This document shows, piece after piece, positions 10,121 through 32,000 of a stretch of 32,000 nt of DNA (position 1 is the first letter of the stretch; the number at the start of each line of letters is the position of its first letter). Origin of the DNA: Patescibacteria group bacterium (GTDB lineage Bacteria > Patescibacteriota > Patescibacteriia > 2-01-FULL-39-33). Where the stretch lies: positions 90,001-122,000 of the forward strand of contig JBAZRV010000001.1 of the NCBI GenBank assembly GCA_041662745.1. Reading direction: 5' to 3'. The position numbers and the translations under genes are program-made. Under the pieces are notes generated by a model that did not search any database, was not told the DNA's origin, and worked only from the letters and a program-made list of their open reading frames with translations.

Positions 10121-10164
<44 letters not shown>

Positions 10165-10198
10165 TGGCGAACAGCCAAACCCTTGGGAGCTTCTCCAC

Positions 10199-10231
<33 letters not shown>

Positions 10232-10770
10232 GAACCTGGTCGTCGATATGGACTCTTGGACCAGACTAGCCTGTTATCCCCGGAGTAGCTTTTATCCGAT
10301 GAGCTTCCACCATCCTACATTGAATGGTCGGATCACTAAATTCTACTTTCGTAACTGCTCGACTTGCAGGTCTCGCAGTAAAGCTGGCTTGTGCTTTTGC
10401 GCTATCACTCCGATTTCCATCCGGAGCTAGCCAACCTTTGTAAACGCCTCCGTTACATTTTGGGAGGCAACCGCCCCAGTTAAACTACCCACCATACACT
10501 GTCCCTCTCCCGGATTACGGGAGGAAGTTAGAATTATAATATAACAAGGGTGGTATTTCACTGGCGCCCGAAGGCTCCCACCTATTCTAAACATATTAGA
10601 TCACAATTCAGTGCAAAGTTGTAGTAAAGCTTCACGGGGTCTTTTCGTCTAACCACGGGTAGGAGGCATCTTCACCTCCCTTGCAATTTCGCTGAGTACT
10701 TCGCTGAGACAGTTGTCAAGTCGTTATGCCATTCGTGCGGGACGGAACTTACCCGTCAAGGAATTTCGCT

Positions 10771-11461
10771 TCAAGTTTCCTTTCTTGGGACTCTATCTTC
10801 ATCCCGATGGGATGCTTAGCGTTTGGTCTCTGAGGATTCTAAAAATCGAGCTGGTAATCGACGGTTCATTTGTTCAATGATCCCGGCGATTTGTATTTTT
10901 CCCTTCTCCTTAAGATGTTTTCCTTGCTTTATCAACTTTATTATCTTGATAAATTTTTTGAAATCATCCGCCTTGGCTGTTTGCAGCCGGCGAGCAGAGA
11001 AAAATGGGATTATGACTTCGGATAAATCACTGATTGATCTTACGCAATACCGATAAAGATTCTCTTGATGGTTATCTTTACGGCGGTTGATATAAATCTT
11101 GCCGCAGCGAAAAAATTTTTGTATTTTTTCTAGTGCTTTAAGACTTTTTTCTCCCTGCGTAATCACAAATTCAGGAAAAATCTGCCAGCCTGATTTGGTA
11201 GTGTGATTTTTGATGATACTGACTGAAAAACAGCCCTCACCATCAGTAAATCCGACTATCCAATGCTCGAATTTCAGCCTTTCCTGCTGATTGATCGACA
11301 TAAATTAAGTTATTTTCTATGGTATAATTTTACCATAGTTTTGTCGATTTTCCCAGCATATGGCTAAGTATTTTGGACCATTCTTATATTGCTATAAGAA
11401 GAGGCAGCGTTAATAGATAACGGTCCCAGTCCTTTTGCATCCGAATTATTTCCGATGCAAA
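10771..11461 (-). mobile_element. intervening sequence 2 in 23S domain IV (691 nt, boundaries +/-2 nt) carrying a LAGLIDADG ORF
   Basis: It interrupts GGTCCTAAGGT|AGCGAAATTCC, just 3' of helix 69. The upstream exon ends in U. With the simplest boundary the insert ends in A rather than G, so the intron class or exact boundary is uncertain. Confidence 0.72.
10816..11301 (-). CDS. LAGLIDADG homing endonuclease (single-motif class), intron-encoded
   Basis: 161-aa protein. WIVGFTDGEGCFSVSI is a LAGLIDADG motif, followed by FPEFVITQGEKSLKALEKIQKFFRCGKIYIN. It is clearly a paralogue of the 9466-10017 protein. Confidence 0.9.
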   Translation of the reverse strand: MSINQQERLKFEHWIVGFTDGEGCFSVSIIKNHTTKSGWQIFPEFVITQGEKSLKALEKIQKFFRCGKIYINRRKDNHQENLYRYCVRSISDLSEVIIPFFSARRLQTAKADDFKKFIKIIKLIKQGKHLKEKGKIQIAGIIEQMNRRLPARFLESSETKR

Positions 11462-12293
11462 ACCTTAGGACCGTTATAGTTACGGCCGGCGTTCATCTGC
11501 GCTTCGATTCAAAGCTGCCCCGGTAAACCGGTTGACCTCTCCTCTTAACGTTCAGACACTGGCCAGGCATCAGCCCCTATACATCAGCTTGCGCTTTAGC
11601 AGGGACCTAAGTTTTTGGTAAACAGTCGCTTGACATCTTTAGCTGCGCCCCAAATAAATTTGGGGAGGCCTTATCCCTAAGTTACGGCCGATTTTTTGCC
11701 GAGTTCCTTAGCGAAGTTTCTCTCATACACCTGAGGCTACTCGCCTCATCCACCTGTGTCGGTTTAAGTACGGTTGCCTTGATCTTAACCCTAGAAGTTT
11801 TTCATGGCACTCGGTTTAATATAATTGAGTCCGCCTTGCGGCTTCCTCTGCTGCCGTATTCGTTGCTTAATGACCGGCGGATTTGCCTGCCGATCACAAC
11901 TACTAACGTCATCGTCATAGCCATAGGACGATATATCTCCCCTGATGCGTCACTCCTTCGGAAAATCAAGCCAGCGCAGGAATATTAACCTGCTCATCCA
12001 TCGGCTACGCCTTTCGGCCTCGTCTTAGGACCGGCTAACCCTGGGTCGATTCTCGTTGCCCAGGAAACCTCGGATTTACGGTGTCTAGAATTTTCATCTA
12101 GATTCTTGCTACTTATGCCAACATTCTTACTTCCTAGCAGTCCACCGCGCCTCACAGCTACGGCTTCGTTCCGCTAAGAACACTCCTCTACCACTCTATA
12201 TAAATATAGAATTCGCAATTTCGGTACTATGTTTAGCCCCGATACATTTTCGGCGCAAGAAAACTTGACCAGTGAGCTATTACGCTATCTTTA

Positions 12294-12324
<31 letters not shown>

Positions 12325-13921
12325 TTGTCGCGGTCTTGATACCACCTTTTACACTTAACATAGATTTAGGGACCTTAATTGGCGATCTGGGCTGTTTCCC
12401 TTTTGACTGATGGACCTTAGCGCCCATAGTCTGACTTCCGAAATAAAGATTACCGGTATTCGGAGTTTGATTGAAGACAGTAACCTTGCGGACCTGTCCT
12501 CATTCAGTGCTCTACCCCCGGGTCTATTTTCGAAGCTAGCCCTGAAGCTATTTCGAGGAGAACCAGCTATCACGAAGTTCGATTGGAATTTCTCCGCTAT
12601 CCACAGCTCATCCCCAAGTGTTGTACAGCTTGTGGGTTCGGGCCTTCCCAGACTGTTACATCTGGTTCACCCTGGCCATGGATAGATCACCTCGTTTCGG
12701 GTCTTATCCGCGCTACAATTGTTCGGACTATTAATCCTCGCTTTCACTGTGCCTTCTCCCCGAAGGGATTAAGCAAGCAACGCAGAATAAACTCGTTGGC
12801 TCATTCTTCAATAGGAACGCCGTCATCCAGAATTCGTATTGCTACGACCTTGGACTCCGACTCGTTTGTAAGCAAATGGTTTCAGATACTATTTCATCGC
12901 CCTAACCGGGCTGCTTTTCACCTTTCCCTCACGGTACTTGTTCGCTATCGATCATCAAAAGTATTTAGCCTTGCCATATAGTCATGGCGGATTCCTACAA
13001 GATTTCACGAGTCCTGTAGTACTTTAGATTATAACGACGGAAGTACGATTCTTTTCGCGTACGGGGCTTTCACCCGCTCTGGCCGGCTGTTCCAAAACCG
13101 TTCCGCTAAAAATTTTATTCCGCTCGGATACAAGTGCAATCCGCTGGTTATAATCATCACCCCAAAGCAGCAACGGGCACTCCTTTATGCCGACGCTACG
13201 CTTTCCCCTTGCGGGAAAAGTTTCACACCGGCAACACTGCTAAGGTTTAGGCTGCTCCGCTTTCGCTCGCCACTACTCGCGGAATGCAATCCATAGATCC
13301 GTGTCCTGCTTACGCAGAAAACGGAACTAAGGATTCAATTTTTTCTTTTCCTCCAGCTACTGAGATGTTTCACTTCGCTGGGTTTGCGTTTGTAACCTAT
13401 GAATTCAGTTACAAATGACGCGGGTTTGCCGCGCCGGGTTTCCCCATTCGGATATCTCCGGATCAAAGGTTGCTTGCCACCTCCCCGAAGCTTTTCGCAG
13501 GCTGCTACGTCCTTCATCGCCTTTTGATGTCTAGGCATCCACCATTCGCCCTTAATGTTTAATCGCAAGAATCTGGATAACTTATAAAAAAGAAAATTGC
13601 CTTATTCTGTCATTCCCGAAAATTTGCAGTGAGTTTTCGACTAATGTCGAAACGAACCAAAATTTATCGGGAATCCAGCATTAAGAATTTCCTCTTGTAA
13701 GAGTTTTTCCTTATTCTGTATTTTATTACTAAAATACTAAAAGTATGTACTCATTAATAATTGCAATTCGCTGCCACGCCCATAAATTTGGCGCGGCATT
13801 AAATTACCCATTTCTTTACTATGCACTATTCAGTTGTCAATGTTCCCAGGTTCAGGATATTTGACATTAACTTCCGCAATTTGAGCGATAAATTTCTTTA
13901 TCAGTCGGATCCGAAAGCTAA

Positions 13922-17117: not shown

Positions 17118-17153
17118 GGAGGAGATCCTTAATCTTGGATCTCCTCCTTTTTC
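17118..17153 (+). terminator. strong intra-operon hairpin plus T-tract (attenuator or partial terminator)
   Basis: GGAGGAGATCC-TTAATCTT-GGATCTCCTCC followed by TTTTTCTTT. It sits 15 nt after the coiled-coil gene stop and 36 nt before the next ATG. Confidence 0.65.
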
Positions 17154-17188
17154 TTTCACTACGGCTAATCGCCATGAAAGGAGTTGTT

Positions 17189-18421
17189 ATGGGAGGACTA
17201 TCATTTTTTGGCCAGGGATTAAGCACGGTTGACATTACCCCCTCTGACTTAAGACGATCTGCTGACGAGCTTAACAGATTAGTCGGTGAGGATTTTACCA
17301 ACGGCGGCAGCATGGATTTTGCTTTGCTGGAGGATACCGACGAATACGTCAAATATTTCGCTCAGCAACTCCGGGTAATAAAAATCCTGCTGTCCTGGTG
17401 CCATAAAATCGGCAACGATGCCGGCAACCAAACCGGCATCATTATTGATTTTCTAAAACGTTTTTCTTACACCCTGGAATGCCTGCGGATGAAATACGTC
17501 CACAATAACCAGCATCGCCTGCGGGTGGACTTGACCGAATCCGGCTTCCCCAATTTTATTGAGCCGGATAATTTGAGAATTGATCTTCTGCAACGCGACG
17601 AACGATTGGCCAGTTTGCCCGGATCGGATCGCCTGAAAAAGTCAGCGCTGGAATATATGTTCAGCCATCTGGCCGAAGCCGAGGATATTTTGGCGATTTT
17701 GGGCGAACGATCTTATTTTTCCATGCTGACGGAAGACAAGTTGTTCCTGCCGTTTACGGCCGGAGAACTGGCAATCTTGAAGTCAGACAACCCTAAAGCG
17801 CGTTATTACAGTTTCGCTTGGGCTTGTTTTGACTTTGCCACTAACCGTCCCTATTTATATCTGATGCATTTTGCATACGATAATGATTGCGAACCGCTGG
17901 AAGAACGCGGCCAGAACTGGAAAGAATTCCGGCACATCATCACCAATGTCGGCTCGCGGGCTCCCCAGCTCGGCATCCTGGCTTTGGACATTGATGATCG
18001 CTTGGCTAACGTTCATCCTAAGGCCGTCAGGCGCATCAGTTTGGGCCCGCTATATTCCAAGTTCCTTTGCAATAACCCGTCAGCAACCGCTGACAAGTGG
18101 CAGGAGGCTTGGTGTCGGATTATGACGGAATTCAGTCGGAAGGAAGACGATTTTGTCTTGTTGCTGACCGAAGAAGAAGTCATTTCCGAACGGCAAGAAG
18201 TTTATGGCCGACCCCTGCGTCGCAAAGTCCGGGAGATCTTTAAAATCAATGAACTCTCTATGGAATGTCTGAACCGGCAAGTTTCCGCAGTCAAGCATTA
18301 TTGCGTTTTGCCTCATTGTTTGTTGCAACAGGCCGTCAATGATCCCCAGCTTTGCGAGTTGGGCTTTGCCGGTTTTAAATGCGTAACCTTCAACGGGGAG
18401 GATTCAATTAATGGGAGATAA
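17189..18421 (+). CDS. hypothetical cytoplasmic protein (410 aa) with an N-terminal FFGQGL motif
   Basis: I place the start at the ATG at 17189, preceded by AAAGGAG 5 nt upstream (the track start at 17135 lies inside the terminator hairpin). The N-terminus MGGLSFFGQGLSTVDITPSDLRRSADELNRLVG matches the N-terminus of the 20448 protein. No known domain recognised. Its stop overlaps the AAA+ start by 11 nt. Confidence 0.7.
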   Translation: MGGLSFFGQGLSTVDITPSDLRRSADELNRLVGEDFTNGGSMDFALLEDTDEYVKYFAQQLRVIKILLSWCHKIGNDAGNQTGIIIDFLKRFSYTLECLRMKYVHNNQHRLRVDLTESGFPNFIEPDNLRIDLLQRDERLASLPGSDRLKKSALEYMFSHLAEAEDILAILGERSYFSMLTEDKLFLPFTAGELAILKSDNPKARYYSFAWACFDFATNRPYLYLMHFAYDNDCEPLEERGQNWKEFRHIITNVGSRAPQLGILALDIDDRLANVHPKAVRRISLGPLYSKFLCNNPSATADKWQEAWCRIMTEFSRKEDDFVLLLTEEEVISERQEVYGRPLRRKVREIFKINELSMECLNRQVSAVKHYCVLPHCLLQQAVNDPQLCELGFAGFKCVTFNGEDSINGR

Positions 18422-20363
18422 AAACGGCTCATGCGTGCCGATTACGGCAGAGCAACTCAAGCCTTTTGATGTTTTTGCCGGCAAATTGATACAAAGCGCC
18501 GGTTGGCAACCCAAAAAGCCGCTAACGGCGCCTTCAGCCGACGGCGGATTAAAATTTAGCGAATCAATGCCGATGGAAGAAAGAATCAATTGGCTGGAAC
18601 TCATTAAACAGTACAACCCCAACGGAATCATTAATTCCGCCAACGTCAACCAACTGCTCAATTCCTTGTACACGGGAATCGGCATCGGCTGTTACGTAGT
18701 GGAAATGTATGCTAAAAGTTCGGGATTGGCCAAATTGCTTGATGACAATTCGCGTCAACGGCTGAATGAAGGACAAAAAGCGGAATTTTCCAAAAAGCTG
18801 GCAACGGCTGCGGCCGTCGCCCAGTTCAGCTTCGCTTCCTTCGTCTCTTGGTCATTGTCGCGTTACCAAGGCGAAAAACTTGATTCCCTGTCTATGGATT
18901 TTCCCGGTTATCCGGAAATCTGCTTGACTGACTACTTGCGCGGTTTCAACTGCCTGTTAGTCTACATGGGAAAGTTCGTCAAAGAATCGGGAAAAATCAG
19001 AACTGATCTGGATCTTCTGAAGGCCGTCCAAGTGGCGGCTCAGGGAGCGCTGGACGAAATCAAACTGCGTCGCGACTCGTTGGAATACACCCAATTCTTC
19101 ACCGATGTGGCGTACAAGCTGGAAGGCGAAGATTTTACTATTTCCGGTTTTGAAAACAGATTAAACAACGGCACGATTGGCGTGGAGTTTAAGCGGGTTG
19201 ACATCAAAACCATTGTCGGCAATCGCGATGCCAAGCGTTTTTTCCAACGATTGGCTGTACGCGCGGCTTGCTATAAAGTGGCGGAGAGACGCAACGTCAT
19301 GTACGATTTAGGGGGTATGCCGGCCGCCAGCATCGGCTTTGGCATTCCCGGTACGGGTAAAACCATGATGATTGGCGCTTTTTCCACGATGCTTTACGAT
19401 CTCTGTAAGTGGCTGGAATTGCCCTATGTATTTGATCCTCATCCTCCCAATATCGTTTCTACCTACCAAGGCGGATCCAGAGAACGGGCCGAGGAGTGGT
19501 GGCAACGCATCTTGAATCCCAATAGGATTTCCTTCGGTCCGGCCGATGATGCTGAAGTTAATTATGAAGACAGGACCCGCCCAGGCGTGTCTGCCGGCGT
19601 CCGTGAAGTTATCGGCGCGGCTCTAACCAACCTGGAAGGGGCCTCAGCTATTTGGCGAGGCAACGCCGTAGTATTTTTTCTAACCAATATCCCCGATCAA
19701 CTGGATCCGGCTTTGCTGTCGCGCATTGTAACCCGTTTCAAAATTGATGGGGCTACCACCTGGCAGGATTTCCTGGACCAGGACCACTTATGGTGGAAAC
19801 GCATTGCCGAAATCGATCCTGCTTTCATTGCCATGGCCGATCCTGACGATTACGAATACTTGTTTGCTCAACGCCTGATCGGCAGCATGGCCGAGACTTA
19901 CATAGGCTATCAGCAACCAAGGGAACGGGTCATTCTGGATATTTTCAACCGCGTGAATAAAGAACGCGACATAAAGGAACAAAAGTTTTTTGCTCAACTC
20001 TATCAAGAAATCCAAAAACAATTTCCCAAATTCAGTTCGCGCGATGTCCGTAATATCCAACGGGCCGTTGACGATCGGTTGTTAGACTTTGATTTTCCTG
20101 AGGCCTGGATGTCCGATCCGGAAATATTTTTCCGTCAGCCTTACGACCGGCAAAAAATCATGGTGTTGGAATTAATGCGAGAGAATATGCAAGGAAAATC
20201 GTTCGCGGAAATCAGATTCCAAGAGGCGATGCGCTATCTGGACAATATGGTGGCGATTGTTGACCTGGGCCATCGTCGCGAAGTGGAACGAGCAAGCGAA
20301 CAAATGATGATCCAAGCGGAAGCCAGCCGGGCAATCCAAAGCCGATTGGAACCGCGCAAATAA
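18411..20363 (+). CDS. AAA+ ATPase, classical-AAA-like module with unknown N- and C-terminal domains (650 aa)
   Basis: SD GGGGAGGA upstream. Motifs: N-linker VDIKTIVGNRDAKRFF; Walker A GIPGTGKT (19341-19364); pore-loop-like TYQGGS; sensor-1/SRH FFLTNIPDQLDPALLSRIVTRFKIDG (compare ATNRPDxLDPALLRPGRFD of FtsH/Cdc48/Vps4-type AAA). The Walker B region reads RISFGPADDAEV, which is non-canonical. Confidence 0.85.
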   Translation: MGDKNGSCVPITAEQLKPFDVFAGKLIQSAGWQPKKPLTAPSADGGLKFSESMPMEERINWLELIKQYNPNGIINSANVNQLLNSLYTGIGIGCYVVEMYAKSSGLAKLLDDNSRQRLNEGQKAEFSKKLATAAAVAQFSFASFVSWSLSRYQGEKLDSLSMDFPGYPEICLTDYLRGFNCLLVYMGKFVKESGKIRTDLDLLKAVQVAAQGALDEIKLRRDSLEYTQFFTDVAYKLEGEDFTISGFENRLNNGTIGVEFKRVDIKTIVGNRDAKRFFQRLAVRAACYKVAERRNVMYDLGGMPAASIGFGIPGTGKTMMIGAFSTMLYDLCKWLELPYVFDPHPPNIVSTYQGGSRERAEEWWQRILNPNRISFGPADDAEVNYEDRTRPGVSAGVREVIGAALTNLEGASAIWRGNAVVFFLTNIPDQLDPALLSRIVTRFKIDGATTWQDFLDQDHLWWKRIAEIDPAFIAMADPDDYEYLFAQRLIGSMAETYIGYQQPRERVILDIFNRVNKERDIKEQKFFAQLYQEIQKQFPKFSSRDVRNIQRAVDDRLLDFDFPEAWMSDPEIFFRQPYDRQKIMVLELMRENMQGKSFAEIRFQEAMRYLDNMVAIVDLGHRREVERASEQMMIQAEASRAIQSRLEPRK

Positions 20364-20376
20364 GGCCTCTCCCAAT

Positions 20377-20410
20377 GGAGGGGGTTACGGTAAAAAACCT
20401 AACCCCCTCC
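20377..20410 (+). other. intercistronic 11-bp stem-loop without a T-tract
   Basis: GGAGGGGGTTA-(12 nt)-TAACCCCCTCC starts 14 nt after the AAA+ stop and is followed by AAAATG rather than a U-run. It may be an mRNA stability or processing element. Confidence 0.55.
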
Positions 20411-20447
20411 AAAATGCTGGTGGGGCTAAACTGAGGAAAGGACGAAG

Positions 20448-21752
20448 ATGGATAAACTACTTGCCGATGCCGGATTATTCGGTCAGGGCTTGACCCTGAT
20501 AGATACGCCGCAACTTGTAGAAAGATACAACGATTGCCTTAAACGATTGGGCCTTCCCCCGACTCAACTAACGTCATTTTCCATTGACGGCATCGGTTGG
20601 TCGCCGGAAATAGCCCAGGAAACTGGCAATCCGCTGTATCTGTCGCATGGCGTGGCTAATCAACTGGCGATAATCATTTCGCCCGATCAAGAACATAAGC
20701 CGATTTACTTTCCCTTCAGTTCGTTTGATCGTTCGCTCCTGGCGGAGTTCTTCAAAAAATTCCGTCAAGCTATTACGGATATCACTACGACTTCCGGCAT
20801 AGCCCTGGATATTGATCAAGAACTGACGTCTTATGAAACGATCTTGGATTTGCTCTTAGTGGAGAACATCACGGTTATAAGTTATTGCGATAATTTGATC
20901 CAGGCGGCTCAACGTCAAAGAGAGCTGACGGAAAGATTCCTTGCCCCGGGCGACAACTGGGCCGACAGGGAATTGGCCCGGCAAATTATCGCCAGCGCTC
21001 AACAGTATGGCAATTTGCGGTACCGTACGGTAGAAATACCGGAATGGCGCTACGATAATCTGGGCTGTTTTTATAGCCGGGCGCTGGACGGCGTGTTTAT
21101 ATTCCGCAATCTGCCCGGCGGCGACTTTATGGTCGTTGAGAACGGCAAATTGGCCAGAAAGAACCGAGCGACGCAAATTGACATTTTTCAATTGACTGAC
21201 AAGCGTTTAATAGATCGTTTGGAAGAGGCCGGACTAATCGCTGTTGATCTCTCCTGGTATCGGGATCATCCCGAAATTTTGGAAGAAAAACGCGATTGTC
21301 TGCTGATTGACATTCTTTCTGCCGCTGATCCCGAAATTGATTATCTGCATTTGACTGAACCGCAAAAAAAATCGCGCTTAAGAAATCTCGGTGTCAAGCT
21401 TCCCAAAATTTACAAGGATCTGGAACGGCTGATCAAACGATTGGGGCAGGATGAGGTTGAAAGTTTTAATGAACTATCAGATGAACTTAAACTTTTGCTC
21501 CTGCAACCGCACCCGGATCTGGAAGAAGAAATGTGGGAATTGGTCGGCATGCTGATTGCGCGCTTGCAACCCTGGCGGTTGCTTATCACGTTTATCTGCG
21601 ATAAGAATCTGTTCTATAAACGCTATGATGACTGGCCGAAAGGAAAACGGCTTTGGGCCATCGCTACGTTGAAAGAACATTACCGGCCCAAAATGAATAT
21701 TCTAAGAGAACGAGCCGCTGAAGCAGAATCAACTGAAGACCTGCAAAAATAA
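20448..21752 (+). CDS. hypothetical cytoplasmic protein (434 aa) with an N-terminal LFGQGL motif
   Basis: SD GAGGAAAGGA upstream. The N-terminus MDKLLADAGLFGQGLTLIDTPQLVERYNDCLKRLG matches the 17189 protein. The remainder is helical and acidic, with no recognised domain. Confidence 0.7.
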   Translation: MDKLLADAGLFGQGLTLIDTPQLVERYNDCLKRLGLPPTQLTSFSIDGIGWSPEIAQETGNPLYLSHGVANQLAIIISPDQEHKPIYFPFSSFDRSLLAEFFKKFRQAITDITTTSGIALDIDQELTSYETILDLLLVENITVISYCDNLIQAAQRQRELTERFLAPGDNWADRELARQIIASAQQYGNLRYRTVEIPEWRYDNLGCFYSRALDGVFIFRNLPGGDFMVVENGKLARKNRATQIDIFQLTDKRLIDRLEEAGLIAVDLSWYRDHPEILEEKRDCLLIDILSAADPEIDYLHLTEPQKKSRLRNLGVKLPKIYKDLERLIKRLGQDEVESFNELSDELKLLLLQPHPDLEEEMWELVGMLIARLQPWRLLITFICDKNLFYKRYDDWPKGKRLWAIATLKEHYRPKMNILRERAAEAESTEDLQK

Positions 21753-21798
21753 ATTTTAATCGCTATCACCCTGAAACCGCAAAACAAGGAGGACAATC

Positions 21799-22590
21799 AT
21801 GCTGATTTTCTTATCTTACGCTCTGTTGTTTACCGCTCTCGGAATTTTTTGGTTCGGCATTGACAAATACTTCGGAGTAGTCGTCTTCTCTTTCGTTTAC
21901 AACCTAACCCACAGCAAGCGTTTGCCGGCCGATCGGGTTTCCGGTTTCATCTTGGGCCGCAAAGCGCGAGGACGATTCTACTCGGCTTTGCTTCTGGGTT
22001 TCGTCAATTGGCGGTCATGCCTCTACTTTATGACGCATGGCCCCGTAGTCAACTCTTTCCTCTTGCTACTGGCTGTCGTTTTTACGATGGTCGGCTTCTA
22101 TTGCGGTCCTATGGTCATGCGACTGTTGGGCAGACGCGACCAACTGCTTAAACATCTGGACGTAATTGACCAGATTGAAGCCGGAGAAATCCAAGTCGGC
22201 GATGAAGCCAAAAAGAAGGCCAAAAGCTGGTGGAAAAATTTAAAGGGCGGTTTAGCTGATTGGAAAAGCGCTCTCAGGGATGCGATCAACGCAACCAAAA
22301 ATCCGGAACAAGCCGCGGTTATTGACACGGCTCCCGCGGAAACGGAAGAGATGCCGGCAACGGCAGCGACCGAGCTATCCGCCCTGCAACAAGAACTTGC
22401 CGGTGTACAGGCCAGCATTAATCTTATGGGCGAGCAGGCCAAAACCGCTCCATCAAACAGTAATGGCGATGAGGCGATTCAACCACCAAATGAAAACCAT
22501 TTGAAAAAAGCGAAAGCCTGTCTGGAAAAATTTTCCCGAGGCGAGGATCCCGGCCTGGGGGCGTCCGATTCCGACCTCAAAAATGAATAG
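21799..22590 (+). CDS. membrane protein (about 4 TM) with a charged helical/disordered C-terminal half, hypothetical
   Basis: 263-aa protein with SD AAGGAGG 6 nt upstream. TM helices lie in residues 1-110. The C-terminal 150 aa are K/E/A-rich (..AKKKAKSWWKNLKGGLADWKSALRDAINATK..) with an acidic end. Confidence 0.7.
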   Translation: MLIFLSYALLFTALGIFWFGIDKYFGVVVFSFVYNLTHSKRLPADRVSGFILGRKARGRFYSALLLGFVNWRSCLYFMTHGPVVNSFLLLLAVVFTMVGFYCGPMVMRLLGRRDQLLKHLDVIDQIEAGEIQVGDEAKKKAKSWWKNLKGGLADWKSALRDAINATKNPEQAAVIDTAPAETEEMPATAATELSALQQELAGVQASINLMGEQAKTAPSNSNGDEAIQPPNENHLKKAKACLEKFSRGEDPGLGASDSDLKNE

Positions 22591-22598
22591 GAGAAGGC

Positions 22599-24224
22599 AT
22601 GATGAGTGAAAAACAAGATAAGGGCGGTCGGCTATACTGGCTGTTCAAACACAGCGCCGGCTGGGCGCTGAATTTTGCCAAACGCCACTGGCTGATTTTT
22701 ACCATCCTCCTGTTGGCAACTTGTCTGGAACTGTTTATCGCCCGAGGTTATGTGTACGGGTATATTATCACTGTCAGGAAATTCTTCGGTTCTTTTTTGG
22801 CAATAATTTCAGCCCTAGGCGTTTTCCGTTGGCTATACCGCAAATACCGTTGGCGCGGAAAACTATTGCTGGTAATCTTCTATTTGCTTGTTAGTTATGG
22901 CATTTATGAAGTCGGCAAACCGATTCATCATTACTTTGCGCAGTTTTACTGCTACAAAATAACTGATTTCGTAGAGCTGGATCAATTGCCGGAAACGGCC
23001 CATGAGCGGATCTTGCCGCTCAACTCCGTTTTCTCGCAAGCGCGGGAATTGGTGCAGGACAATGTCCAACCGGCCGAACCCCACTTCGTACGAATTGACG
23101 ACCAATACCGTTTCACTATGGGCATTGAACCCACTCCGCTTCTGCCCCGTATTTTTTCCGGAATCCGTCAAGTTTATAATATTGACGGCGCCTCCCCGTC
23201 GCCTGATTGGGGTTTGCAAAATCTGGTTGATGTCAGATTTGAAACCGGAGAAGGACTTAAGTGGAGCAGGAACACTTACATTGCCACCAGTCGCGCCTTC
23301 GGATTGTGGCGCTATTTCAACTATGAGCCGGACGGCGTTATCTACCTTAAAGACGACTCCGGAAAAATGGTGCAAGCGGTGCCACTGATCCGTTGGAAAG
23401 GGTTATTGTTTCCCCGGCCAACTTTTGGCGGCGTGCAAGTAATTGAACAATCGCCGGACGGCATCTGGCAAAGCCTCAGGCGAGTCCTGTTCGGCTGCGG
23501 TTATTATGTCTCGCCGGCCAAAATGAAAAACTATCCGTTCTTAAACGGACAGAACGTTCTATCTTACAAGGTGTCTCGTTATGTCGCTGAAAGCTTCAAA
23601 TTCCATAAAGGGCTTTCTGCTCCTCTGCCTTGGATCCATCGAGGCGATGTCAGAATCGCCAATATGCCCGAGGATATGAACGACCAACCATTCACTATCT
23701 TTTTCCGTCTGGGACAACTTGGCGGTAAAGATGCTCTTTATCACTACTTCTCACTTCAACCCTACTCGGAAAAATCGCAAGGGTTATCCGTTTCCCTGTT
23801 CGTGCCGGCTGATGGCCTGGGAAAAATATTTATCTTCTCTCATCACCAGAAAGAACCGATGCTGGGAGTGACCGCCGTAACCAATAAAGTCATCGGCGAT
23901 CATAAGTTTTTTGACTGGACAATCAATCGGCCGGTTGAACAACGGCCCTACATCACCAAAGTAAACGGCAAGATCCGCTTTTACTGGCTGACGACCGTCG
24001 TTACCCTGGACAATAAGGACGCCAAACATTATATTGCCGGCAGTCGTCCCGACGTAATCTTGACCGACGCGGCCAATCAATGCGTTTATTGGATGGAGTC
24101 AGCTGACTCCAGTGCTTGGAAAAAGCAACTGGAAGCGAATGTCAGTTTCAAGCCAGTTATGGGAGGACCGCCTCAAGCAGAAAAAGTGGAACCGGCGACG
24201 ATCCAGCCGATTTCCGCAGAATAA
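22599..24224 (+). CDS. membrane-anchored protein (about 3-4 N-terminal TM helices) with a ~420-aa probably extracytoplasmic domain, hypothetical
   Basis: 541-aa protein with SD AGGAGAAGG upstream; the start is ATG 22599 or 22602. TM helices lie in residues ~30-115. The rest is a W/Y/F/P/G-rich sequence that looks beta-rich, with no recognised motif. Confidence 0.7.
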   Translation: MMSEKQDKGGRLYWLFKHSAGWALNFAKRHWLIFTILLLATCLELFIARGYVYGYIITVRKFFGSFLAIISALGVFRWLYRKYRWRGKLLLVIFYLLVSYGIYEVGKPIHHYFAQFYCYKITDFVELDQLPETAHERILPLNSVFSQARELVQDNVQPAEPHFVRIDDQYRFTMGIEPTPLLPRIFSGIRQVYNIDGASPSPDWGLQNLVDVRFETGEGLKWSRNTYIATSRAFGLWRYFNYEPDGVIYLKDDSGKMVQAVPLIRWKGLLFPRPTFGGVQVIEQSPDGIWQSLRRVLFGCGYYVSPAKMKNYPFLNGQNVLSYKVSRYVAESFKFHKGLSAPLPWIHRGDVRIANMPEDMNDQPFTIFFRLGQLGGKDALYHYFSLQPYSEKSQGLSVSLFVPADGLGKIFIFSHHQKEPMLGVTAVTNKVIGDHKFFDWTINRPVEQRPYITKVNGKIRFYWLTTVVTLDNKDAKHYIAGSRPDVILTDAANQCVYWMESADSSAWKKQLEANVSFKPVMGGPPQAEKVEPATIQPISAE

Positions 24225-27086: not shown

Positions 27087-28076
27087 TTATTGGTTGCGCC
27101 CATTGCTGTGTTTGCCGTTATTCATAGGACGAGCGGGCTTGGATCGATTAACCGACGTACTGCGTTGGGACGACCGGGCGGGTGACACATTGGGCGTCGG
27201 CCGAGACGAACGAGTAGGTACTGCCGCTCTTGCCGGCGCATTGCGTTGCGGCGATCGGATCGGCGACGTACTGCGTGTTGTCGGTCTGGCCGGAGTTACC
27301 GCTCTTGCCGGTGACGACTGCCGCGACGGCGATACGTGAGAGGGTTGCCGCGACGGCGTCTGACGCAAGGAGGGCGAATGGGTGTTGGGATTGCTATATT
27401 GTTGCCTGGGTGTAACCGGTCGGACAGTTTGGGGCGTGCTACGCATTGGCCTGGCCGGAGTTACCGCTCTTGCCGGTGACGATTGCCGGGACGGCGATAC
27501 GTGAGACGGTTGTCGCGACGGCGATACGTGAGACGGTTGTCGCGACGGCGTCACGGAATGATTAATACCGGAACCGCCATGGGGCGTCTGTTGCCGTGGC
27601 GGTTCGCGCCTCGGTGGCGACACATGGAATGGTTGTCCGTGCCGTGGCGGTTCGCGCCTCGGTGGCGAAGAATATGATCTCGGTTGATGATGATTTATCA
27701 AAACACCATGAATGCCGACATTTACATCAACGTGGCCGTAATGATGGCCGGGCGATCGATGGAAGTGGCTGCGGTAATAAGGCGTCGGACGCCAATAATA
27801 ATTCAATACCACATGATCAATCGGCACCGGGCGGACCCATACGGTATCCACGCCAAAATAAACACGGTGCGTAACGCCTCCGGCAACATAATAATAGTGA
27901 TCGGGGTCAGGATAAACCACTTCTTCCGTAACAAACGTTTCCTTGGTAACGGTCGTTACGCCATTTTCCGATGTGGTGGTTATAACCGTTTCCACTCTTC
28001 GGTTGGTGGCGCAACCCAAAGACAGTGTCAAAGCGGATACCAGAATAATACACAAAACTGCGGCTGACTTTTTCAT
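27087..28076 (-). CDS. lipoprotein with a His/Tyr-rich globular N-domain and a long Pro/Arg/Ser/Thr-rich repetitive tail
   Basis: 329-aa protein with SD AAAGGAG 6 nt upstream. The signal peptide ends in a lipobox-like LSLGC. The tail contains SPPRREPPR x2, PSRQPSHVS x3 and SRQSSPARAVTPARP x2, and is extremely basic. Confidence 0.7.
   Translation of the reverse strand: MKKSAAVLCIILVSALTLSLGCATNRRVETVITTTSENGVTTVTKETFVTEEVVYPDPDHYYYVAGGVTHRVYFGVDTVWVRPVPIDHVVLNYYWRPTPYYRSHFHRSPGHHYGHVDVNVGIHGVLINHHQPRSYSSPPRREPPRHGQPFHVSPPRREPPRQQTPHGGSGINHSVTPSRQPSHVSPSRQPSHVSPSRQSSPARAVTPARPMRSTPQTVRPVTPRQQYSNPNTHSPSLRQTPSRQPSHVSPSRQSSPARAVTPARPTTRSTSPIRSPQRNAPARAAVPTRSSRPTPNVSPARSSQRSTSVNRSKPARPMNNGKHSNGRNQ
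27286..27552 (-). repeat. intragenic DNA repeats encoding the PSRQPSHV / SRQSSPARAVTPARP units
   Basis: The ~75-bp block 27286-27360 recurs at 27451-27552 with a few substitutions. The second copy contains a tandem duplication of the 27-bp unit CGCGACGGCGATACGTGAGACGGTTGT (two copies, 27487-27513 and 27514-27540). A further 28-bp repeat GCCGTGGCGGTTCGCGCCTCGGTGGCGA occurs twice at about 27593-27670. Confidence 0.85.
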
Positions 28077-28448: not shown

Positions 28449-29294
28449 ATGAAAATCCTGATTATTGGCAATGGCTATATTGGCAGCCGCTGCGCCCAAG
28501 AATGGGGGAACGAGGCCATCCTATCGGATAAAATTATTAATTCAACTGAAGACGCTACTGATATTTTAGAAAAGTTTTGCCCGGATGCGGTTTTAAACGC
28601 GGCGGGAATTGTCGGTAAGCCGAATGTTGACTGGTGCGAGGCTAATCAATTGGAAACAATCAAAGGCAATACCCTATTACCTCTTATAATTGCCTCGGCC
28701 TGCGCGCAAAAAAACATTTATTTGCTGCACATTGGCAGTGGCTGTATTTTTTATGGCCAATCTCCCGAACCAAAAGGCTGGAAAGAAACTGATTTCGCTA
28801 ATCCGGAAGTAGTTTATACAAAATCAAAATATGCGGCCGACCTGGCCTTAATGAATCTGTCTAACGTCGGCATTGCTAGAATCAGGATGCCCATCGATAG
28901 CCTGCCTTATCGTGGCAACTTGATTGATAAGTTAGCTGCTTATAAACAAGTCATTGACGTGGAAAACAGCGTAACTGTAATTGAAGACATGATAAAAATT
29001 TTTTATCAATTACTATCAAAAAGGGCTAGGGGCATTTTTCATGTCACTAACCCCGGAAGCATCAAACACAAGGAGATCCTTAATTTATATCGAGAGTTGG
29101 TTGATCCGCAACATGAAAATAGCTGGATTAATGAAGCTGACTTGGTCAACCTGGGACTAGCGGTAAAGAAACGTTCTAGTAATATTCTGCAGTCAAAAAA
29201 CTTGGCTGATTTAGGCATCGCCATGAGGCCAATTAAAGAAGCTTTAAGGCAAACCCTGATTGACTATGCTAAAAACAGGCGCTCGGATTCTTGA
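28449..29294 (+). CDS. NAD(P)-dependent sugar-nucleotide 4-keto-reductase/epimerase of the RmlD / NRS-ER (UDP/dTDP-4-keto-rhamnose 3,5-epimerase-4-reductase) type
   Basis: 281-aa protein. Rossmann start MKILIIGNGYIGS and catalytic YTKSKYAADL (YxxxK). The blocks GKPNVDWCE, IRMPI, ENSVTVIEDM and GIFHVTNPGSIKHKEILNLYRELVDP closely resemble the plant NRS/ER protein as I recall it (GRPNVDWCE, VRMPI, PNSMTVLDEL, GIWNFTNPGVVSHNEILEMYRDYINP). Confidence 0.7.
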   Translation: MKILIIGNGYIGSRCAQEWGNEAILSDKIINSTEDATDILEKFCPDAVLNAAGIVGKPNVDWCEANQLETIKGNTLLPLIIASACAQKNIYLLHIGSGCIFYGQSPEPKGWKETDFANPEVVYTKSKYAADLALMNLSNVGIARIRMPIDSLPYRGNLIDKLAAYKQVIDVENSVTVIEDMIKIFYQLLSKRARGIFHVTNPGSIKHKEILNLYRELVDPQHENSWINEADLVNLGLAVKKRSSNILQSKNLADLGIAMRPIKEALRQTLIDYAKNRRSDS

Positions 29295-29319
29295 CTTTTT
29301 ATTAAAAATTCAGTAAACT
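29291..29319 (+). promoter_or_regulatory. candidate promoter for the tRNA-Pro array transcript
   Basis: TTGACT-17 nt-TAAACT, overlapping the stop codon of the reductase gene. I found no comparable promoter closer to the intact tRNA-Pro. Confidence 0.45.
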
Positions 29320-29340
29320 GCAATAGTAAATTAGGATATT

Positions 29341-29837
29341 AGGTGAGGACGTAGTACCTGCCTACCGGCAGGCAGGCGCGCCCATGGTATCATAGCGGAA
29401 GTAAAATCGGGGTGGAGTATGTCGGTAGTACCTGCCTACCGGCAGGCAGGCGCGCCCATGGGGTGGTTTAAAATCCATCAAAGATTTTAAAAGGTTAGAA
29501 GTGAAATAAGCGCGAGAGCGCGAAATTGAACGATCAAAAATATGCCAGTGACATATTTTTGCTAACCCTGGACGAGCTGAGCGAGAGCGAAACGAGGTTT
29601 AACTAAATACCGAAAACAAAATCGGGGTGGAGTATGTCGGTAGTACCTGCCTACCGGCAGGCAGGCGCGCCCATGGGGTGGTTTAAAATCCATCAAAGAT
29701 TTTAAAAGGTTAGAAGTGAAATAAGCGCGAGAGCGCGAAATTGAACGATCAAAAATATGCCAGTGACATATTTTTGCTAACCCTGGACGAGCTGAGCGAG
29801 AGCGAAGCGAGGTTTAACTAAATACCGAAAACAAAAT
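29341..29837 (+). repeat. tandem array of tRNA-Pro 5'-half pseudo-copies: one truncated unit (29341-29407) plus two 215-bp units (29408-29622, 29623-29837)
   Basis: The two 215-bp units differ at one position (29592 A versus 29807 G). Each starts with CGGGGTGGAGTATGTCGGTAGTA (tRNA-Pro positions 1-23), then a 20-nt near-palindrome CCTGCCTACCGGCAGGCAGG absent from the intact gene. Next comes CGCGCCCATGGGGTGG (anticodon stem-loop), then about 156 nt of unique sequence with several hairpins. The leftmost unit keeps the palindrome and anticodon segment but has an internal deletion. Confidence 0.9.
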
Positions 29838-29908
29838 CGGGGTGGAGTATGTCGGTAGTACGCGCCCATGGGGTGGGTGTAGACGGGGTTCAATTCCCCG
29901 CACCCCGA
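29838..29908 (+). tRNA. tRNA-Pro (anticodon GGG), CCA not encoded
   Basis: CGGGGTG-GA-GTAT-GTCGGTA-GTAC-G-CGCCC-ATGGGGT-GGGTG-TAGA-CGGGG-TTCAATT-CCCCG-CACCCCG-A. All four stems pair (one G-U in the anticodon stem and one in the D stem). The anticodon loop is identical to E. coli proL. Confidence 0.85.
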
Positions 29909-29917
29909 CATTATTAA

Positions 29918-29955
29918 GAATCAAAAAAATCCCTAAACTGGGATTTTTTTGATTC
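29918..29955. terminator. bidirectional terminator between tRNA-Pro and the convergent surface-protein gene
   Basis: GAATCAAAAAAATCCC-TAAACT-GGGATTTTTTTGATTC, a 16-bp stem containing A7/T7 runs. Confidence 0.75.
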
Positions 29956-30013
29956 TAAAACTTTAGTGATACCGATAACCAAAAATATAATAAGTTAAGA
30001 TAAACAGAACAGT

Positions 30014-32000
30014 TTAATCTTTTAAGTTAGGATTGTATCTAAATAAAGCTTCTCGGCCGTCTTTATAACCATCGCCGTCACTGTCGGCATTAGCCGGTTG
30101 AGTATTATAGATGTTAGTCTCATCGCTATCGGCCAGACCATCTTTATCGCTATCAATAAAACCGGCATCGTTCCTGATATAATCATTCTCAAAGCTTGAT
30201 TGGATAATGATTAATCGGTTCTTCCATTTTTCCCCAAAAATATCAGCTGCTTCCTGCTCGCTAATATATTTCAAATTATTATTGCCAAAAACCATGTAAA
30301 CTCTGGGACTATTATCAAAACTAATCAAGTTTGATCCGGGATTAGCCCTAACATGATCCCCTTCGGTTAACGCATCAAAGGTTGCTTGGTTGATTACTTC
30401 TACTTTTTGTTGCGCCCAAGCGCCGGTATGCCAAGTCCAATAAGTCGCCTCGTTAACATATAAATGCCTTTTATTATCGTCAGTCACATGATAAACAGCT
30501 GGATTGTTTGCTACTTTTATCATTCTGCCGGCAGTATAAATTCCCTTCCCAACCGTTGAAGCCGTCGAACTGCTTTCAATAATTGAACTGCCACACGGCT
30601 GGCTCTCGGCCGGCCTCGTGCTGTTTTGTTTACAGCCGTGACTATCGGTGCAGGTTCTAATCTGCGTACCATTAGAACAAGCCATCCAAGCCGTGCAACC
30701 CCACTTAGGCGTACAGGCTGAAGCGCAGGTTTGAGAAAGCGCCGGCCTATTGGCAACCGTACCGCAACTGCTTGAATCGGCGCATGTTCTGGTTTGATTA
30801 TTGCCGGAACAAGCAGACCAAGAGCCACAAGTCCAATTTTCCGTACAATCCGATCCGCTTGAAGCGCAGGTTTGAGAAAGTGCCGGTCTGTTGGCAACCG
30901 TACCGCAACCATTACTGTCAGTGCAGGTCCTGATCTGGCTATTATTAGAACAAGCAGACCAAGAACCACAAGTCCAATTTTCCGTGCAACCGGAAGCTGT
31001 CGTTGGTTTGATTTTAATTGCAATATCCTTTGAGAAACTGGGTATTGATCCGGTTAATACTCCGCCGACGGTCTGAACCTGCCCCTCGCTAATCAAACCG
31101 CCCGTTCCCCAAGTATTATAATATTGTATTTTGTAAGTACCGGCGCTAAGGCCGGGTAAAGTGAAAGTAGTATTGCTTATAACTCCATTGTTTTCTAATC
31201 CATACTGACTCCCGATATCATAAACCCATAAGTAAGCGGAATTATTTCCAACTAAACTGATATTTTGCAAAATATGAGAATTAAAAGCAACTGAAGTGGG
31301 ACAGCTGAAAGAATAATCTTTGATATAAAACCAATCGCGGCCGGTATTTTTAACCTGGATTGTGTGTGTTCCGGCCGGGATAGAAGCCTCCAATTCCAGA
31401 TTTGAGGCTCCGGCGGCCGGCGCCAATGAGGCAGCCACCACCCCATCAACCAAAATCTCCATGCTGCTCGGCAAATAAGCGTAATTGGAAACAGAGGGAA
31501 TAATAAGCTTGATAGTTGCCGGCGCATCAAAATTTGTATGAAAAATTGGATCGGAACGAAGGCTTTCTTGGATTGTTCCATGGAGATTAACGGTCATTTT
31601 TTCAAAATCTTCTATTTGCCCGTACTGATCAACATTAAATATTCGCTGTTGAGGCACATCATAAAAATTAATAAGGCCGGGAAGATTAGAACGAACAACA
31701 GTCTCTCTGGCCATCGTTTGAGTGGTTACCTGCACCTCAGTATTTATAAGGCCCTCATCGCCCCAAGTCTCGCCGTCCATAAAAAGGAATGGCGGTTTGA
31801 AAAGTTGATATAACCTTAAACTGCCACCGACATAAGAGGCGTACCAAATATGGGCTGATGATTTTAAAAACAACGATTCCCATATAATATTATGAAGATG
31901 CAATCCTTCCGCTAATTGCGAACGATACGGTTCGGAGAAGGAAGAATAAGTGAGTTCCGGCGCGTCATCGTCAGCTCCTAAACCAAATTCACCCGTAAAA
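30014..32000 (-). CDS. large secreted/surface protein (N-terminus beyond the window) with three thrombospondin-type-1-like Cys repeats and C-terminal thrombospondin-type-3-like Ca-binding repeats
   Basis: The track starts it at a TTG (31903), but the frame stays open to the window edge (upstream in-frame translation FTGEFGLGADDDAPELTYSSFSEPYRSQLAEG-LHLHNII...). The gene is therefore 5'-partial. It contains 3 x ~41-aa units C(T)ENWTCGSWSACSxxxQxRTCxDSxxCGTVANRPALSQTC and a C-terminal DSDKDGLADSDE...DSDGDGYKDGRE. Confidence 0.75.
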   Translation of the reverse strand, partial: FTGEFGLGADDDAPELTYSSFSEPYRSQLAEGLHLHNIIWESLFLKSSAHIWYASYVGGSLRLYQLFKPPFLFMDGETWGDEGLINTEVQVTTQTMARETVVRSNLPGLINFYDVPQQRIFNVDQYGQIEDFEKMTVNLHGTIQESLRSDPIFHTNFDAPATIKLIIPSVSNYAYLPSSMEILVDGVVAASLAPAAGASNLELEASIPAGTHTIQVKNTGRDWFYIKDYSFSCPTSVAFNSHILQNISLVGNNSAYLWVYDIGSQYGLENNGVISNTTFTLPGLSAGTYKIQYYNTWGTGGLISEGQVQTVGGVLTGSIPSFSKDIAIKIKPTTASGCTENWTCGSWSACSNNSQIRTCTDSNGCGTVANRPALSQTCASSGSDCTENWTCGSWSACSGNNQTRTCADSSSCGTVANRPALSQTCASACTPKWGCTAWMACSNGTQIRTCTDSHGCKQNSTRPAESQPCGSSIIESSSTASTVGKGIYTAGRMIKVANNPAVYHVTDDNKRHLYVNEATYWTWHTGAWAQQKVEVINQATFDALTEGDHVRANPGSNLISFDNSPRVYMVFGNNNLKYISEQEAADIFGEKWKNRLIIIQSSFENDYIRNDAGFIDSDKDGLADSDETNIYNTQPANADSDGDGYKDGREALFRYNPNLKD
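30593..30988 (-). repeat. three tandem ~135-bp coding repeats (TSP1-like modules)
   Basis: Protein residues 306-346, 353-393 and 397-437 (numbered from the TTG). Copies 1 and 2 are near-identical at the protein level (CTENWTCGSWSACS(N/G)N(S/N)Q(I/T)RTC(T/A)DS..CGTVANRPALSQTCAS); copy 3 is diverged. Confidence 0.85.

Follow-up and report, generated by a model that had tools for sequence, protein, structure and literature searches.

A dispersed 20-bp palindrome in a tandem array of tRNA-Pro halves of a Patescibacteria genome, and its association with small GIY-YIG nuclease genes inside tRNA genes

Single-domain GIY-YIG nucleases of the Ssn type, with a length of ~94 amino acids (aa) and no DNA-binding domain, bind cognate hairpin repeats of 20-50 nt (SRM, NTS or dRS3, of which dRS3 is a 20-bp palindrome) that stand beside their genes and also recur as scattered copies elsewhere in the genome (Chenal et al. 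2025; PMC11893778). These enzymes cut only single-stranded DNA (ssDNA), a few nucleotides upstream of the repeat, and the authors described an insertion sequence (IS)-like repeat-gene-repeat layout and suggested domestication (PMC11893778). This pairing of single-domain GIY-YIG ssDNA nucleases with hairpin repeats, Ssn/SRM, is the closest described system to the subject of the present analysis, a tandem array of partial tRNA-Pro copies in a genome assembly of a Patescibacteria group bacterium (GCA_041662745.1, contig JBAZRV010000001.1, positions 90,001 to 122,000). We refer to this whole stretch of 32,000 nt as the window and number its positions from 1. Every partial copy, or pseudo-half, is interrupted by a 20-nt palindrome, PAL (CCTGCCTACCGGCAGGCAGG). 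We lean towards reading the array as a relic, devoid of an open reading frame (ORF), of a cassette that invades tRNA genes, in which a mobile 20-bp PAL landed later or came along.

Other known systems share single features with this locus. Integrase-driven genomic islands insert into tRNA genes and rebuild them, leave partial tRNA direct repeats, undergo tandem accretion with cis-mobilisable elements, and give rise to decayed, gene-less derivatives. In the repetitive extragenic palindromes (REP) and bacterial interspersed mosaic elements (BIME) associated with RAYT (TnpA-REP), as in the 'peel and paste' transposition of IS200/IS605, a small enzyme recognises hairpins in ssDNA, and no target duplication results; we know of no link between REP/RAYT and the regeneration of tRNA genes. 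Mobile endonuclease ORFs of fungal mitochondria bring with them a duplicate end of the invaded gene, the old end becoming a pseudogene, and yeast mitochondria harbor mobile GC-cluster palindromes, although no fixed pairing of a palindrome with a nuclease is known to us in fungal mitochondrial systems. Finally, SegB is reported to be a free-standing GIY-YIG homing endonuclease in the tRNA gene cluster of phage T4 (PMC2330249), and SegB-driven segmental amplification, in which nuclease breaks promote the inheritance and tandem amplification of the neighboring segment, has been reported as well (PMC13096335).

In the window, Tandem Repeats Finder identified a repeat at 29403-29861 with a period of 215, 2.1 copies, and 99% matches. 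The two full units (29403-29617 and 29618-29832) differ at one base and, together with an internally deleted unit, P, precede an intact tRNA-Pro(GGG) (Table 1), so that repeat analysis confirmed the arrangement proposed in an earlier reading of the letters of this DNA (hereafter, the sequence-only reading). Each full unit consists, in this order, of nt 1-23 of the tRNA, PAL, nt 24-39 (CGCGCCCATGGGGTGG), and an unrelated, hairpin-rich spacer of 156 nt. The three copies of PAL in the window all lie in the array, none was found in 100 shuffles, and the intact tRNA-Pro gene is free of it; the view that the pseudo-copies are related to one another rather than being fresh copies of the gene was likewise borne out.

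Further copies of the locus were located on two other contigs through an exact match to the RmlD-like protein encoded upstream of the array. In one other assembly of the same organism (L001; loci outside the window carry L numbers), the degenerate unit and only one full unit precede the tRNA, and in another (L002) the contig breaks inside the first PAL; the number of full units (one or two) is either polymorphic or collapsed in assembly. A sister lineage (L179, with L180), in which RmlD is 91% identical, carries tRNA nt 1-39 followed by the 156-nt spacer at least twice before the contig ends, and its pseudo-halves run continuously through GGTAGTA/CGCGCC (the slash marks the PAL site of the window) without PAL. 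Aligned with L179, the window differs at this point by exactly 20 bp with no target duplication, which agrees with the earlier description of the palindrome as an insertion. The comparison of the tRNA-Pro locus between related genomes thus recovered the array in the sister lineage, the palindrome being absent there. Because the sister has pseudo-half and spacer without PAL, PAL is separate from the tRNA-derived unit; its presence in many phyla and in phages also speaks against the idea, found in the sequence-only reading, that the palindrome is a part of that unit. The occurrence of the same repeat in the sister indicates, moreover, that the repeat is real and older than the split of the two lineages.

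Several features of the two arrays bear on how they arose. The spacers differ between the window and the sister at ~14 of 156 positions (~9%), whereas the pseudo-half matches the intact gene at 39/39 positions in both lineages, in keeping with concerted evolution of the repeat array with the gene. The leftmost element of the array, in the sister L179 as in the window, is a pseudo-half that follows unrelated sequence, not a spacer; insertion of a segment made up of spacer plus 5' part into the gene therefore fits better than duplication of a pre-existing leader. An RmlD homolog at 73% identity has no adjoining tRNA and therefore gave no view of the ancestral leader of tRNA-Pro.

Beyond this locus, PAL is a dispersed element that is present or absent as an exact 20-bp unit. 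When one genome per species, 596 Gb in total, was scanned with the pattern CCTGCCTRCCGGYAGGCAGG, PAL was found at at least 120 loci, versus ~2 expected by chance according to our own estimate. The sequence-only reading had proposed to look elsewhere for both the palindrome and the 156-nt unit: the former recurs as just described, and the unit as a whole was found only in the same species and the sister lineage. Among the loci listed, PAL is hosted by Bacteroidota (including cultured Winogradskyella, Olivibacter, and Flagellimonas), Patescibacteria, Omnitrophota, Planctomycetota, Gammaproteobacteria, Nitrospirota, and Chloroflexota, with flanks that are unrelated between loci, and it also occurs in 48 stretches of viral contigs. 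Of 123 copies, 79 are perfect palindromes, the most frequent form, and the remainder are A/T variants. Four pairs of filled and empty paralogous sites in other genomes display the gain of exactly 20 bp of PAL, with neither target duplication nor deletion. No target motif or target duplication is apparent across the 123 copies, apart from a rarity of T at position -1 (8/123) and of A at position +1 (9/123). With no target-site duplication either between the window and L179 or in the four paralogous pairs, PAL does not qualify as a miniature inverted-repeat transposable element. A sequencing or adapter artefact was considered as the source of PAL and rejected in view of contiguous native flanks, the occurrence in cultured isolates and in a complete genome, and the identical sequence in three assemblies of the locus.

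PAL favors structured DNA. Of 180 sites, 11 place it in a hairpin loop closed by a perfect stem of at least 7 bp, versus 1.0 expected from random positions. Of 192 sites, 12 have an intact tRNA within 100 nt (2.0 expected) and 8 have a gene of the GIY-YIG family within 300 nt (1.1 expected), and in three loci (L022, L028, and L061) one PAL is nested in the center of another. Within tRNA-derived DNA the sites are junctions of loops and stems, mostly the 3' side of the D loop, as in the window, and otherwise the 5' edge of the anticodon loop (L194 and L195) or the junction between variable loop and T stem (L162, L133, and L196). Upon deletion of PAL in silico, ARAGORN called a tRNA across the junction at two sites only: a complete viral tRNA-Met was restored in L162, where PAL occupies the variable loop of the only otherwise complete tRNA that contains it, and the pseudo-copy of L046 gave an odd call of 86 nt.

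A few further observations concern PAL itself and palindromes resembling it in position. Initiator-like tRNA-Met genes with PAL between the anticodon arm and the T arm are borne by phages, on two viral contigs (L162, 2240-2330; L133, 8570-8660), and in L162 PAL makes an artificial long variable arm, which may be tolerated. In L196 (1590-1720), a downstream 3' pseudo-copy of tRNA-Leu has three directly adjoining PAL copies, in tandem, at its D-arm site and a fourth, variant copy at the T arm; the tandem copies suggest repeated insertion at one spot. Other short palindromes are inserted in the D arms of pseudo-tRNAs in L124 (~1000-1080), L125, L056 (820-860), L191 (~1430-1460), and L183 (~1390-1430). 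They include ACCAGAGCAWAGCTCGGTA (two metagenome loci), the 33-nt CCCGCCCGTACCGAACGGGTACGTTCGGGCGGG, the 20-nt CCTGACTACCGTCAGGTAGT, and an imperfect palindrome of 36 nt, so that several hairpin families, PAL among them, may share this habit.

PAL is tightly linked to one family of GIY-YIG genes, and the genes of this family lie inside tRNA genes that are kept intact by means of a duplicated 5' part, with arrays forming in some cases. The recurrent layout at PAL sites near tRNAs consists of a 5' tRNA fragment with PAL, an ORF of 77-94 aa that matches only the Pfam family GIY-YIG (PF01541), and an intact copy of the same tRNA; we refer to it as the cassette. Since these loci had been chosen through PAL, a second sample was drawn from the homologs of one cassette protein, which were found in Patescibacteria and Bacteroidota; eight of them were inspected in their genomic context. 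All eight chromosomal loci contain a 5' pseudo-tRNA with PAL (exact or with one mismatch), the ORF, and the intact tRNA, the tRNAs being those for Asn, Arg, Leu, and others. A search of viral contigs with the nuclease alignment yielded four loci, two of them already known; of the two new ones, one has the layout with a diverged palindrome, and the other encodes a distant homolog (40% identity) without the layout. In all cases found, the genes tightly linked to PAL belong to GIY-YIG, RAYT not having been searched for across whole genomes.

The cassette is compactly built. The first 5-17 nt 3' of PAL continue the tRNA sequence, and in 10 of 14 cassettes the start codon follows 16-23 nt after PAL ends. 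Translation stops 0-7 nt 5' of the tRNA or up to 44 nt within it, and the ORF has no terminator of its own, so that the tRNA must be transcribed through the cassette. The pseudo-copies end anywhere from ~nt 28 to ~nt 55 in different loci, which is at odds with the fixed target in the anticodon stem that the sequence-only reading had envisaged. The cassette proteins are 36-62% identical to one another (median 47%), and yet PAL is conserved at 20/20 positions, which points to a direct, sequence-specific constraint on PAL. Compared with NCBIfam, the proteins gave nothing above cutoff, and the matches to solved structures were weak and confined to the UPF0213 proteins 1YWL and 1ZG2. Tandem arrangements were also encountered: in a complete isolate genome (CP123444.1; L193), two 301-bp units of pseudo-half, PAL, and ORF precede tRNA-Arg, and L194 and L095 retain remnants of earlier cassette units. 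At the degraded end of the range, L046 keeps a pseudo-copy with PAL followed by a spacer of 29 nt. The suggestion that the array represents scars of a small element, or a tandemly amplified miniature mobile element with a tRNA-derived end, goes in the right direction, the layout recurring in many unrelated genomes with a GIY-YIG cargo; the palindrome, however, is separate from the unit.

Variations on the cassette were observed as well. In L091 (3700-4300), PAL and a GIY-YIG domain stand in frame in the central conserved region of a type I restriction specificity (HsdS-like) gene, separated by 21 nt of target without duplication, and the long reading frame is open through both. In the metagenome and genome loci L128, L125, L124, and L023, a segment that brings an entire tRNA gene, of matching or different type, divides a tRNA into two pseudo-parts, the 5' one with PAL, and is flanked in L128 by a 19-bp inverted repeat; this looks like replacement of the whole gene rather than of its 5' part. 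On a viral contig (L173, 825-960), a long insert that looks structured, and may be a group I intron, breaks the downstream tRNA copy behind the anticodon stem, and ARAGORN does not call this copy. A Shapirobacteria cassette in tRNA-Asn lies ~1 kb downstream of cas1-cas2 (L183, 1-441), probably by coincidence.

How does the window compare with these cassettes? Three 5' fragments of tRNA-Pro stand directly upstream of the intact tRNA-Pro(GGG) on the same strand; PAL is found 16 nt before the end of the pseudo-half, within the cassette range of 5-17 nt, and at a D-arm site, GGTAG(T)A/CGCG, that is common to L128, L125, L124, L191, and L196. The tandem units have their counterpart in L193. What the window does not contain is the GIY-YIG ORF. 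The anatomy of the locus and the parallels elsewhere are compatible with a scenario in which a 156-nt cargo together with a copy of tRNA-Pro nt 1-39 would have been inserted into tRNA-Pro(GGG), the incoming 5' part and the resident 3' part making up an intact gene and the resident 5' part staying upstream as a pseudo-half. Recombination between direct repeats could then have amplified the unit into (pseudo-half - spacer)n - tRNA, with n varying between populations. PAL is located exactly between nt 23 and 24 of every pseudo-half in the window lineage; the difference from the sister is plain and would reflect either gain in the window lineage or erasure in the sister through gene conversion by the intact gene. 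In the cell the array probably serves no function and is carried as a long 5' leader that needs to be removed from the pre-tRNA.

PAL is associated with single-domain GIY-YIG nucleases (77-94 aa) that Patescibacteria, Bacteroidota, and some phage contigs encode, which suggests that it is the conserved hairpin partner of these enzymes. By analogy with the Ssn enzymes, the nuclease would bind the PAL hairpin in ssDNA and nick a few nucleotides away. The pseudo-half and the regenerated tRNA could serve as portable homology arms for entry into the same conserved tRNA gene of other genomes, stimulated by breaks, and repeated breakage and repair between the direct repeats would produce arrays. PAL alone might be inserted in trans into hairpin-prone DNA and persist only where it is harmless, for instance in a pseudo-half. 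There, one may further speculate, it would shorten the uninterrupted homology with the functional copy, and a crossover to the right of PAL would yield a dead tRNA, which would stabilise the cassette. PAL in the pseudo-half could also act as a recognition site of the nuclease that is independent of the target, and it could cause recombinational loss of the cassette to leave a dead tRNA, an addiction-like or 'cleave-and-rescue' logic. Taken to its full extent, and advanced here only tentatively, as something we hold possible rather than probable, the proposal is that PAL, at 20 bp, is a mobile DNA element of the non-autonomous kind and perhaps the shortest one known, and that it is mobilised in trans by an Ssn-like, ssDNA-specific GIY-YIG nuclease whose gene spreads inside rebuilt tRNA genes with pseudo-half and tRNA as homology arms, and that the window records a jump of PAL into a decayed cassette array.

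The main uncertainty is the assignment of the ORF-less window to the cassette class, and a number of observations weigh against it or against the proposed mobility. Between the pseudo-halves and tRNA-Pro there is no GIY-YIG ORF, nor is there a profile match elsewhere in the window, the 32 kb to which the search for a nuclease in the source genome extended. The possibility that the spacer is a decayed GIY-YIG gene was explored with a profile of five cassette proteins against the six frames of 29320-29840 with stops masked; the only outcome was a 5-residue coincidence (AR.RE), and such an origin was not demonstrated. The spacer matched no family in Rfam at E values up to 10, where the units gave nothing beyond noise (RT-8, E = 0.73). 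In the sister lineage, which lacks PAL, either the junction of pseudo-half and spacer is older than PAL or PAL was erased by gene conversion, and a simple model in which PAL-directed cutting makes the junction therefore fits badly. Two degraded cassettes with truncated ORFs lack PAL as well, L114 having no palindrome in its pseudo-half and L056 a different one, of 33 nt, at the D-loop site. The enrichment of PAL in hairpin loops is partly confounded, PAL being mostly intergenic and the control positions including coding DNA. Some 90% of PAL copies are not near any GIY-YIG gene, and mobilisation in trans is for this reason an assumption. Furthermore, hydrolytic GIY-YIG nucleases are to our knowledge incapable of strand transfer, and we know of no insertion chemistry for a 20-bp hairpin.

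The alternative to a relic cassette that we take most seriously is plain tandem duplication, by slippage or unequal crossing-over, of the native leader with tRNA-Pro nt 1-39, PAL having later hit a pseudo-copy and spread by unequal exchange or gene conversion. A spacer without an ORF or recognisable cargo, near-identical units in head-to-tail order, the absence of PAL from the sister array, and a unit number that varies between assemblies, as unequal exchange predicts, would all follow from such a history. However, duplication of leader plus 5' part predicts a copy of the spacer at the left end of the array, where both lineages instead start with the pseudo-half; many unrelated tRNA genes have this layout, a mobile nuclease gene taking the place of the spacer; and in L046 the sequence 5' of the pseudo-copy is unrelated to the spacer. 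On balance, we regard this serious rival as rather unlikely. Far less probable still is an origin through a tyrosine or serine recombinase, with an att site in the anticodon arm of tRNA-Pro and the 215-bp units as attL/attR-like leftovers of integration and excision, as in the accretion of cis-mobilisable elements. Partial tRNA direct repeats beside an intact tRNA are indeed the hallmark of integrases, and tandem accretion is known for them, but Pfam scans of the ORFs of the window revealed no recombinase and none was seen in the analogous cassette loci; in addition, the 5' part is duplicated here instead of the usual 3' part, the variable end of the pseudo-copies is ill-suited to a fixed crossover site, and the units measure merely 195-215 bp.

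A structured leader with a function, in which pseudo-halves and spacer hairpins regulate the maturation of tRNA-Pro or act as tRNA-half-like or decoy RNAs, is equally hard to credit. Shuffled sequence folds less well than the spacer (z = -2.7 for the window, -5.4 for the sister), one of the spacer hairpins has a compensatory change (G-C versus A-T at the outer pair between the lineages), and pseudo-half and gene are identical in both lineages. The reverse strand folds equally well, though (z = -3.2), a behavior typical of palindromic DNA and not of RNA genes; the covariation amounts to a single pair in two lineages; the identity of the pseudo-half is explained by concerted evolution within the array; and the spacer is ~9% diverged between close relatives, varies in copy number, and has no match in Rfam. 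Nothing was found in support of the decoy or regulatory tRNA-half RNAs that the sequence-only reading had listed among its explanations. That reading had also entertained an assembly artefact, and contigs do break at the array in L002, L179, and L180, while the number of full units differs between the window (two) and another assembly (one). Creation or expansion of the array by an assembler is nonetheless the least probable of these explanations, because pseudo-half, palindrome, and spacer are found in three independent assemblies, and pseudo-half and spacer in the sister lineage; the junction between the end of a spacer and a palindrome-bearing pseudo-half exists only given at least two units; a single-nucleotide polymorphism separates the two units; and the complete isolate genome contains a comparable tandem array. 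A tRNA origin of the spacer was considered separately: its sole match, 14 nt antisense to the T arm (GTTCAATTTCGCGC), was equalled by 11-21 of 500 shuffles, and being marginal it was not used.

Returning to the relic cassette reading, the described systems differ from the cassette in instructive ways. As in Ssn, the cassette protein, which Pfam places in PF01541, is a small single-domain GIY-YIG protein (roughly 80-95 aa) beside an inverted repeat with dispersed copies (13 related loci, none of them the window, encode such a protein of ~90 aa beside the hairpin), and the offset of the Ssn cut resembles the 5-17 nt that separate PAL from the cassette junction. Unlike the SRMs, PAL lacks the GTC of the SRM search motif HGTCWY...RNCYNB (PMC11893778) and has no conserved oriented flank, and it is identical across phyla, whereas SRMs differ between hosts. 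The Ssn paper does not mention tRNA genes once, nor gene regeneration or filled and empty sites (PMC11893778). Like integrase islands, the cassette inserts into a tRNA gene without loss of function and leaves partial tRNA repeats; unlike them, it has no integrase that we could find, duplicates the 5' part, varies in its junction, measures ~0.2-0.3 kb, and encodes a GIY-YIG nuclease. PAL shares with REP/RAYT the character of a short dispersed palindrome linked to a small enzyme and inserted without target duplication, but the enzyme is HUH/Y1 there and GIY-YIG here, and REPs are lineage-specific, whereas PAL is an exact 20-mer across phyla. With SegB, the cassette has in common a GIY-YIG gene among tRNA genes; that enzyme is larger, includes a DNA-binding part, is not encoded within a tRNA gene, and has neither pseudo-tRNA halves nor a palindrome partner. 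The mobile ORFs of fungal mitochondria resemble the cassette in that the invaded gene remains functional through a replacement borne by the element and that short GC-rich palindromes spread in the same genomes; they differ in being organellar, in having protein-coding hosts, and in replacing the 3' end. In the literature searched, we found neither the sequence of PAL or its core nor, in work on GIY-YIG proteins with tRNA duplication or palindromes, a description of the cassette, and none of the pairing of a 20-bp moving palindrome with a tiny nuclease gene inside tRNA genes.

The features of the array are collected in Table 1. The intact tRNA-Pro(GGG), scanned alone, scores 41.7 bits against the Rfam tRNA model (RF00005; gathering score 29), and the cloverleaf is its minimum-free-energy fold, although it carries G8 and G14 in place of the usual, near-universal U8 and A14. 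A cmscan of the entire window at the gathering threshold with the fast filters of Rfam did not report it; the speed filters seem to fail beside the repeated half-copies. The promoter match at 29291-29319, which the sequence-only reading had singled out as the only good promoter, upstream of the array, is the sole sigma-70-type match of the region (9/12 positions); since the shuffled region averages 3.6 such matches, it is not evidence of a promoter or of function. The hairpin at 29914-29959 is probably the terminator of the tRNA-Pro transcription unit, passed over by the terminator scan because it has too few G-C pairs; microRNA-like matches on it in the Rfam search at E up to 10 are regarded as noise.

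Table 1. Elements of the tRNA-Pro array and its immediate flanks (window coordinates)
Feature	Positions	Strand	Basis or remark
Sigma-70-like promoter match (TTGACT, 17 nt, TAAACT), 5' of the entire array	29291-29319	+	Weak
Degenerate, internally deleted unit P	29342-29407	+	Repeat families D2-D4; in L001, absent from sister L179
Unit P: decayed acceptor/D-arm remnant	29342-29350	+	
Unit P: 37-nt core, GTAGTA + PAL + CGCGCCCATGG, 100% identical to the full units	29351-29387	+	Family D3
PAL copy 1, CCTGCCTACCGGCAGGCAGG, in unit P	29357-29376	Strandless	
Unit P: 20-nt remnant of the spacer 3' end; most of the spacer deleted	29388-29407	+	
Unit 1: pseudo-tRNA-Pro 5' fragment (nt 1-23, 29408-29430; PAL, 29431-29450; then nt 24-39)	29408-29466	+	
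Unit 1: 156-nt spacer ('body'), three hairpins	29467-29622	+	
Unit 2: pseudo-tRNA-Pro 5' fragment (nt 1-23, 29623-29645; PAL, 29646-29665; then nt 24-39)	29623-29681	+	
Unit 2: 156-nt spacer; G at 29807 versus A at 29592 in unit 1	29682-29837	+	
Intact tRNA-Pro(GGG), without the palindrome	29838-29909	+	ARAGORN call
A/T-rich hairpin, 20-nt arms, 95% complementary, followed by a T run	29914-29959	+	Inverted repeat I3

Elsewhere in the window, the minus strand encodes a 5S rRNA (8864-8971) and a 23S rRNA (10088-13565) that spans 3478 nt against a model of 2925 positions. One LAGLIDADG endonuclease ORF (10816-11301) lies within the 23S span and a second (9466-10017) between 23S and 5S; both are probably intron-encoded homing endonucleases, so that the genome would hold several kinds of homing nuclease. 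Tandem repeats are also found within ORFs: a 141-bp repeat (30719-30989; 1.9 copies, 81% matches) in a 629-aa ORF on the minus strand (30014-31903) that bears a bacterial TSP3 repeat, and a 27-bp repeat (27478-27550; 2.7 copies, 93% matches) in the ORF 27087-28076. A possible defence or mobile module is a run of plus-strand ORFs at 17135-24224 with scant or no Pfam annotation, in which an AAA ATPase (18411-20363) precedes a DUF6638 protein (20448-21752).

For the organism, the reading we favor makes the array debris and not a device for regulation, and the number of its units is not to be trusted from a short-read assembly. If the link between PAL and the nuclease holds, the filled and empty sites would show a hairpin of the Ssn type moving as an exact 20-bp unit, which is lacking in published work, and the nuclease gene would have a defined genomic lifestyle, inside tRNA genes that it regenerates. 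If true, this would explain the truncated tRNA fragments and the genes annotated as 'GIY-YIG nuclease family protein' that abut tRNAs in Patescibacteria, Bacteroidota, and some phages, and would flag a source of contig breaks at tRNA loci. The pairs of nuclease and hairpin would also represent a ready set for testing as ssDNA tools, and the cassette would illustrate, in nature, how a selfish element can do no harm to an essential target because it rebuilds it.

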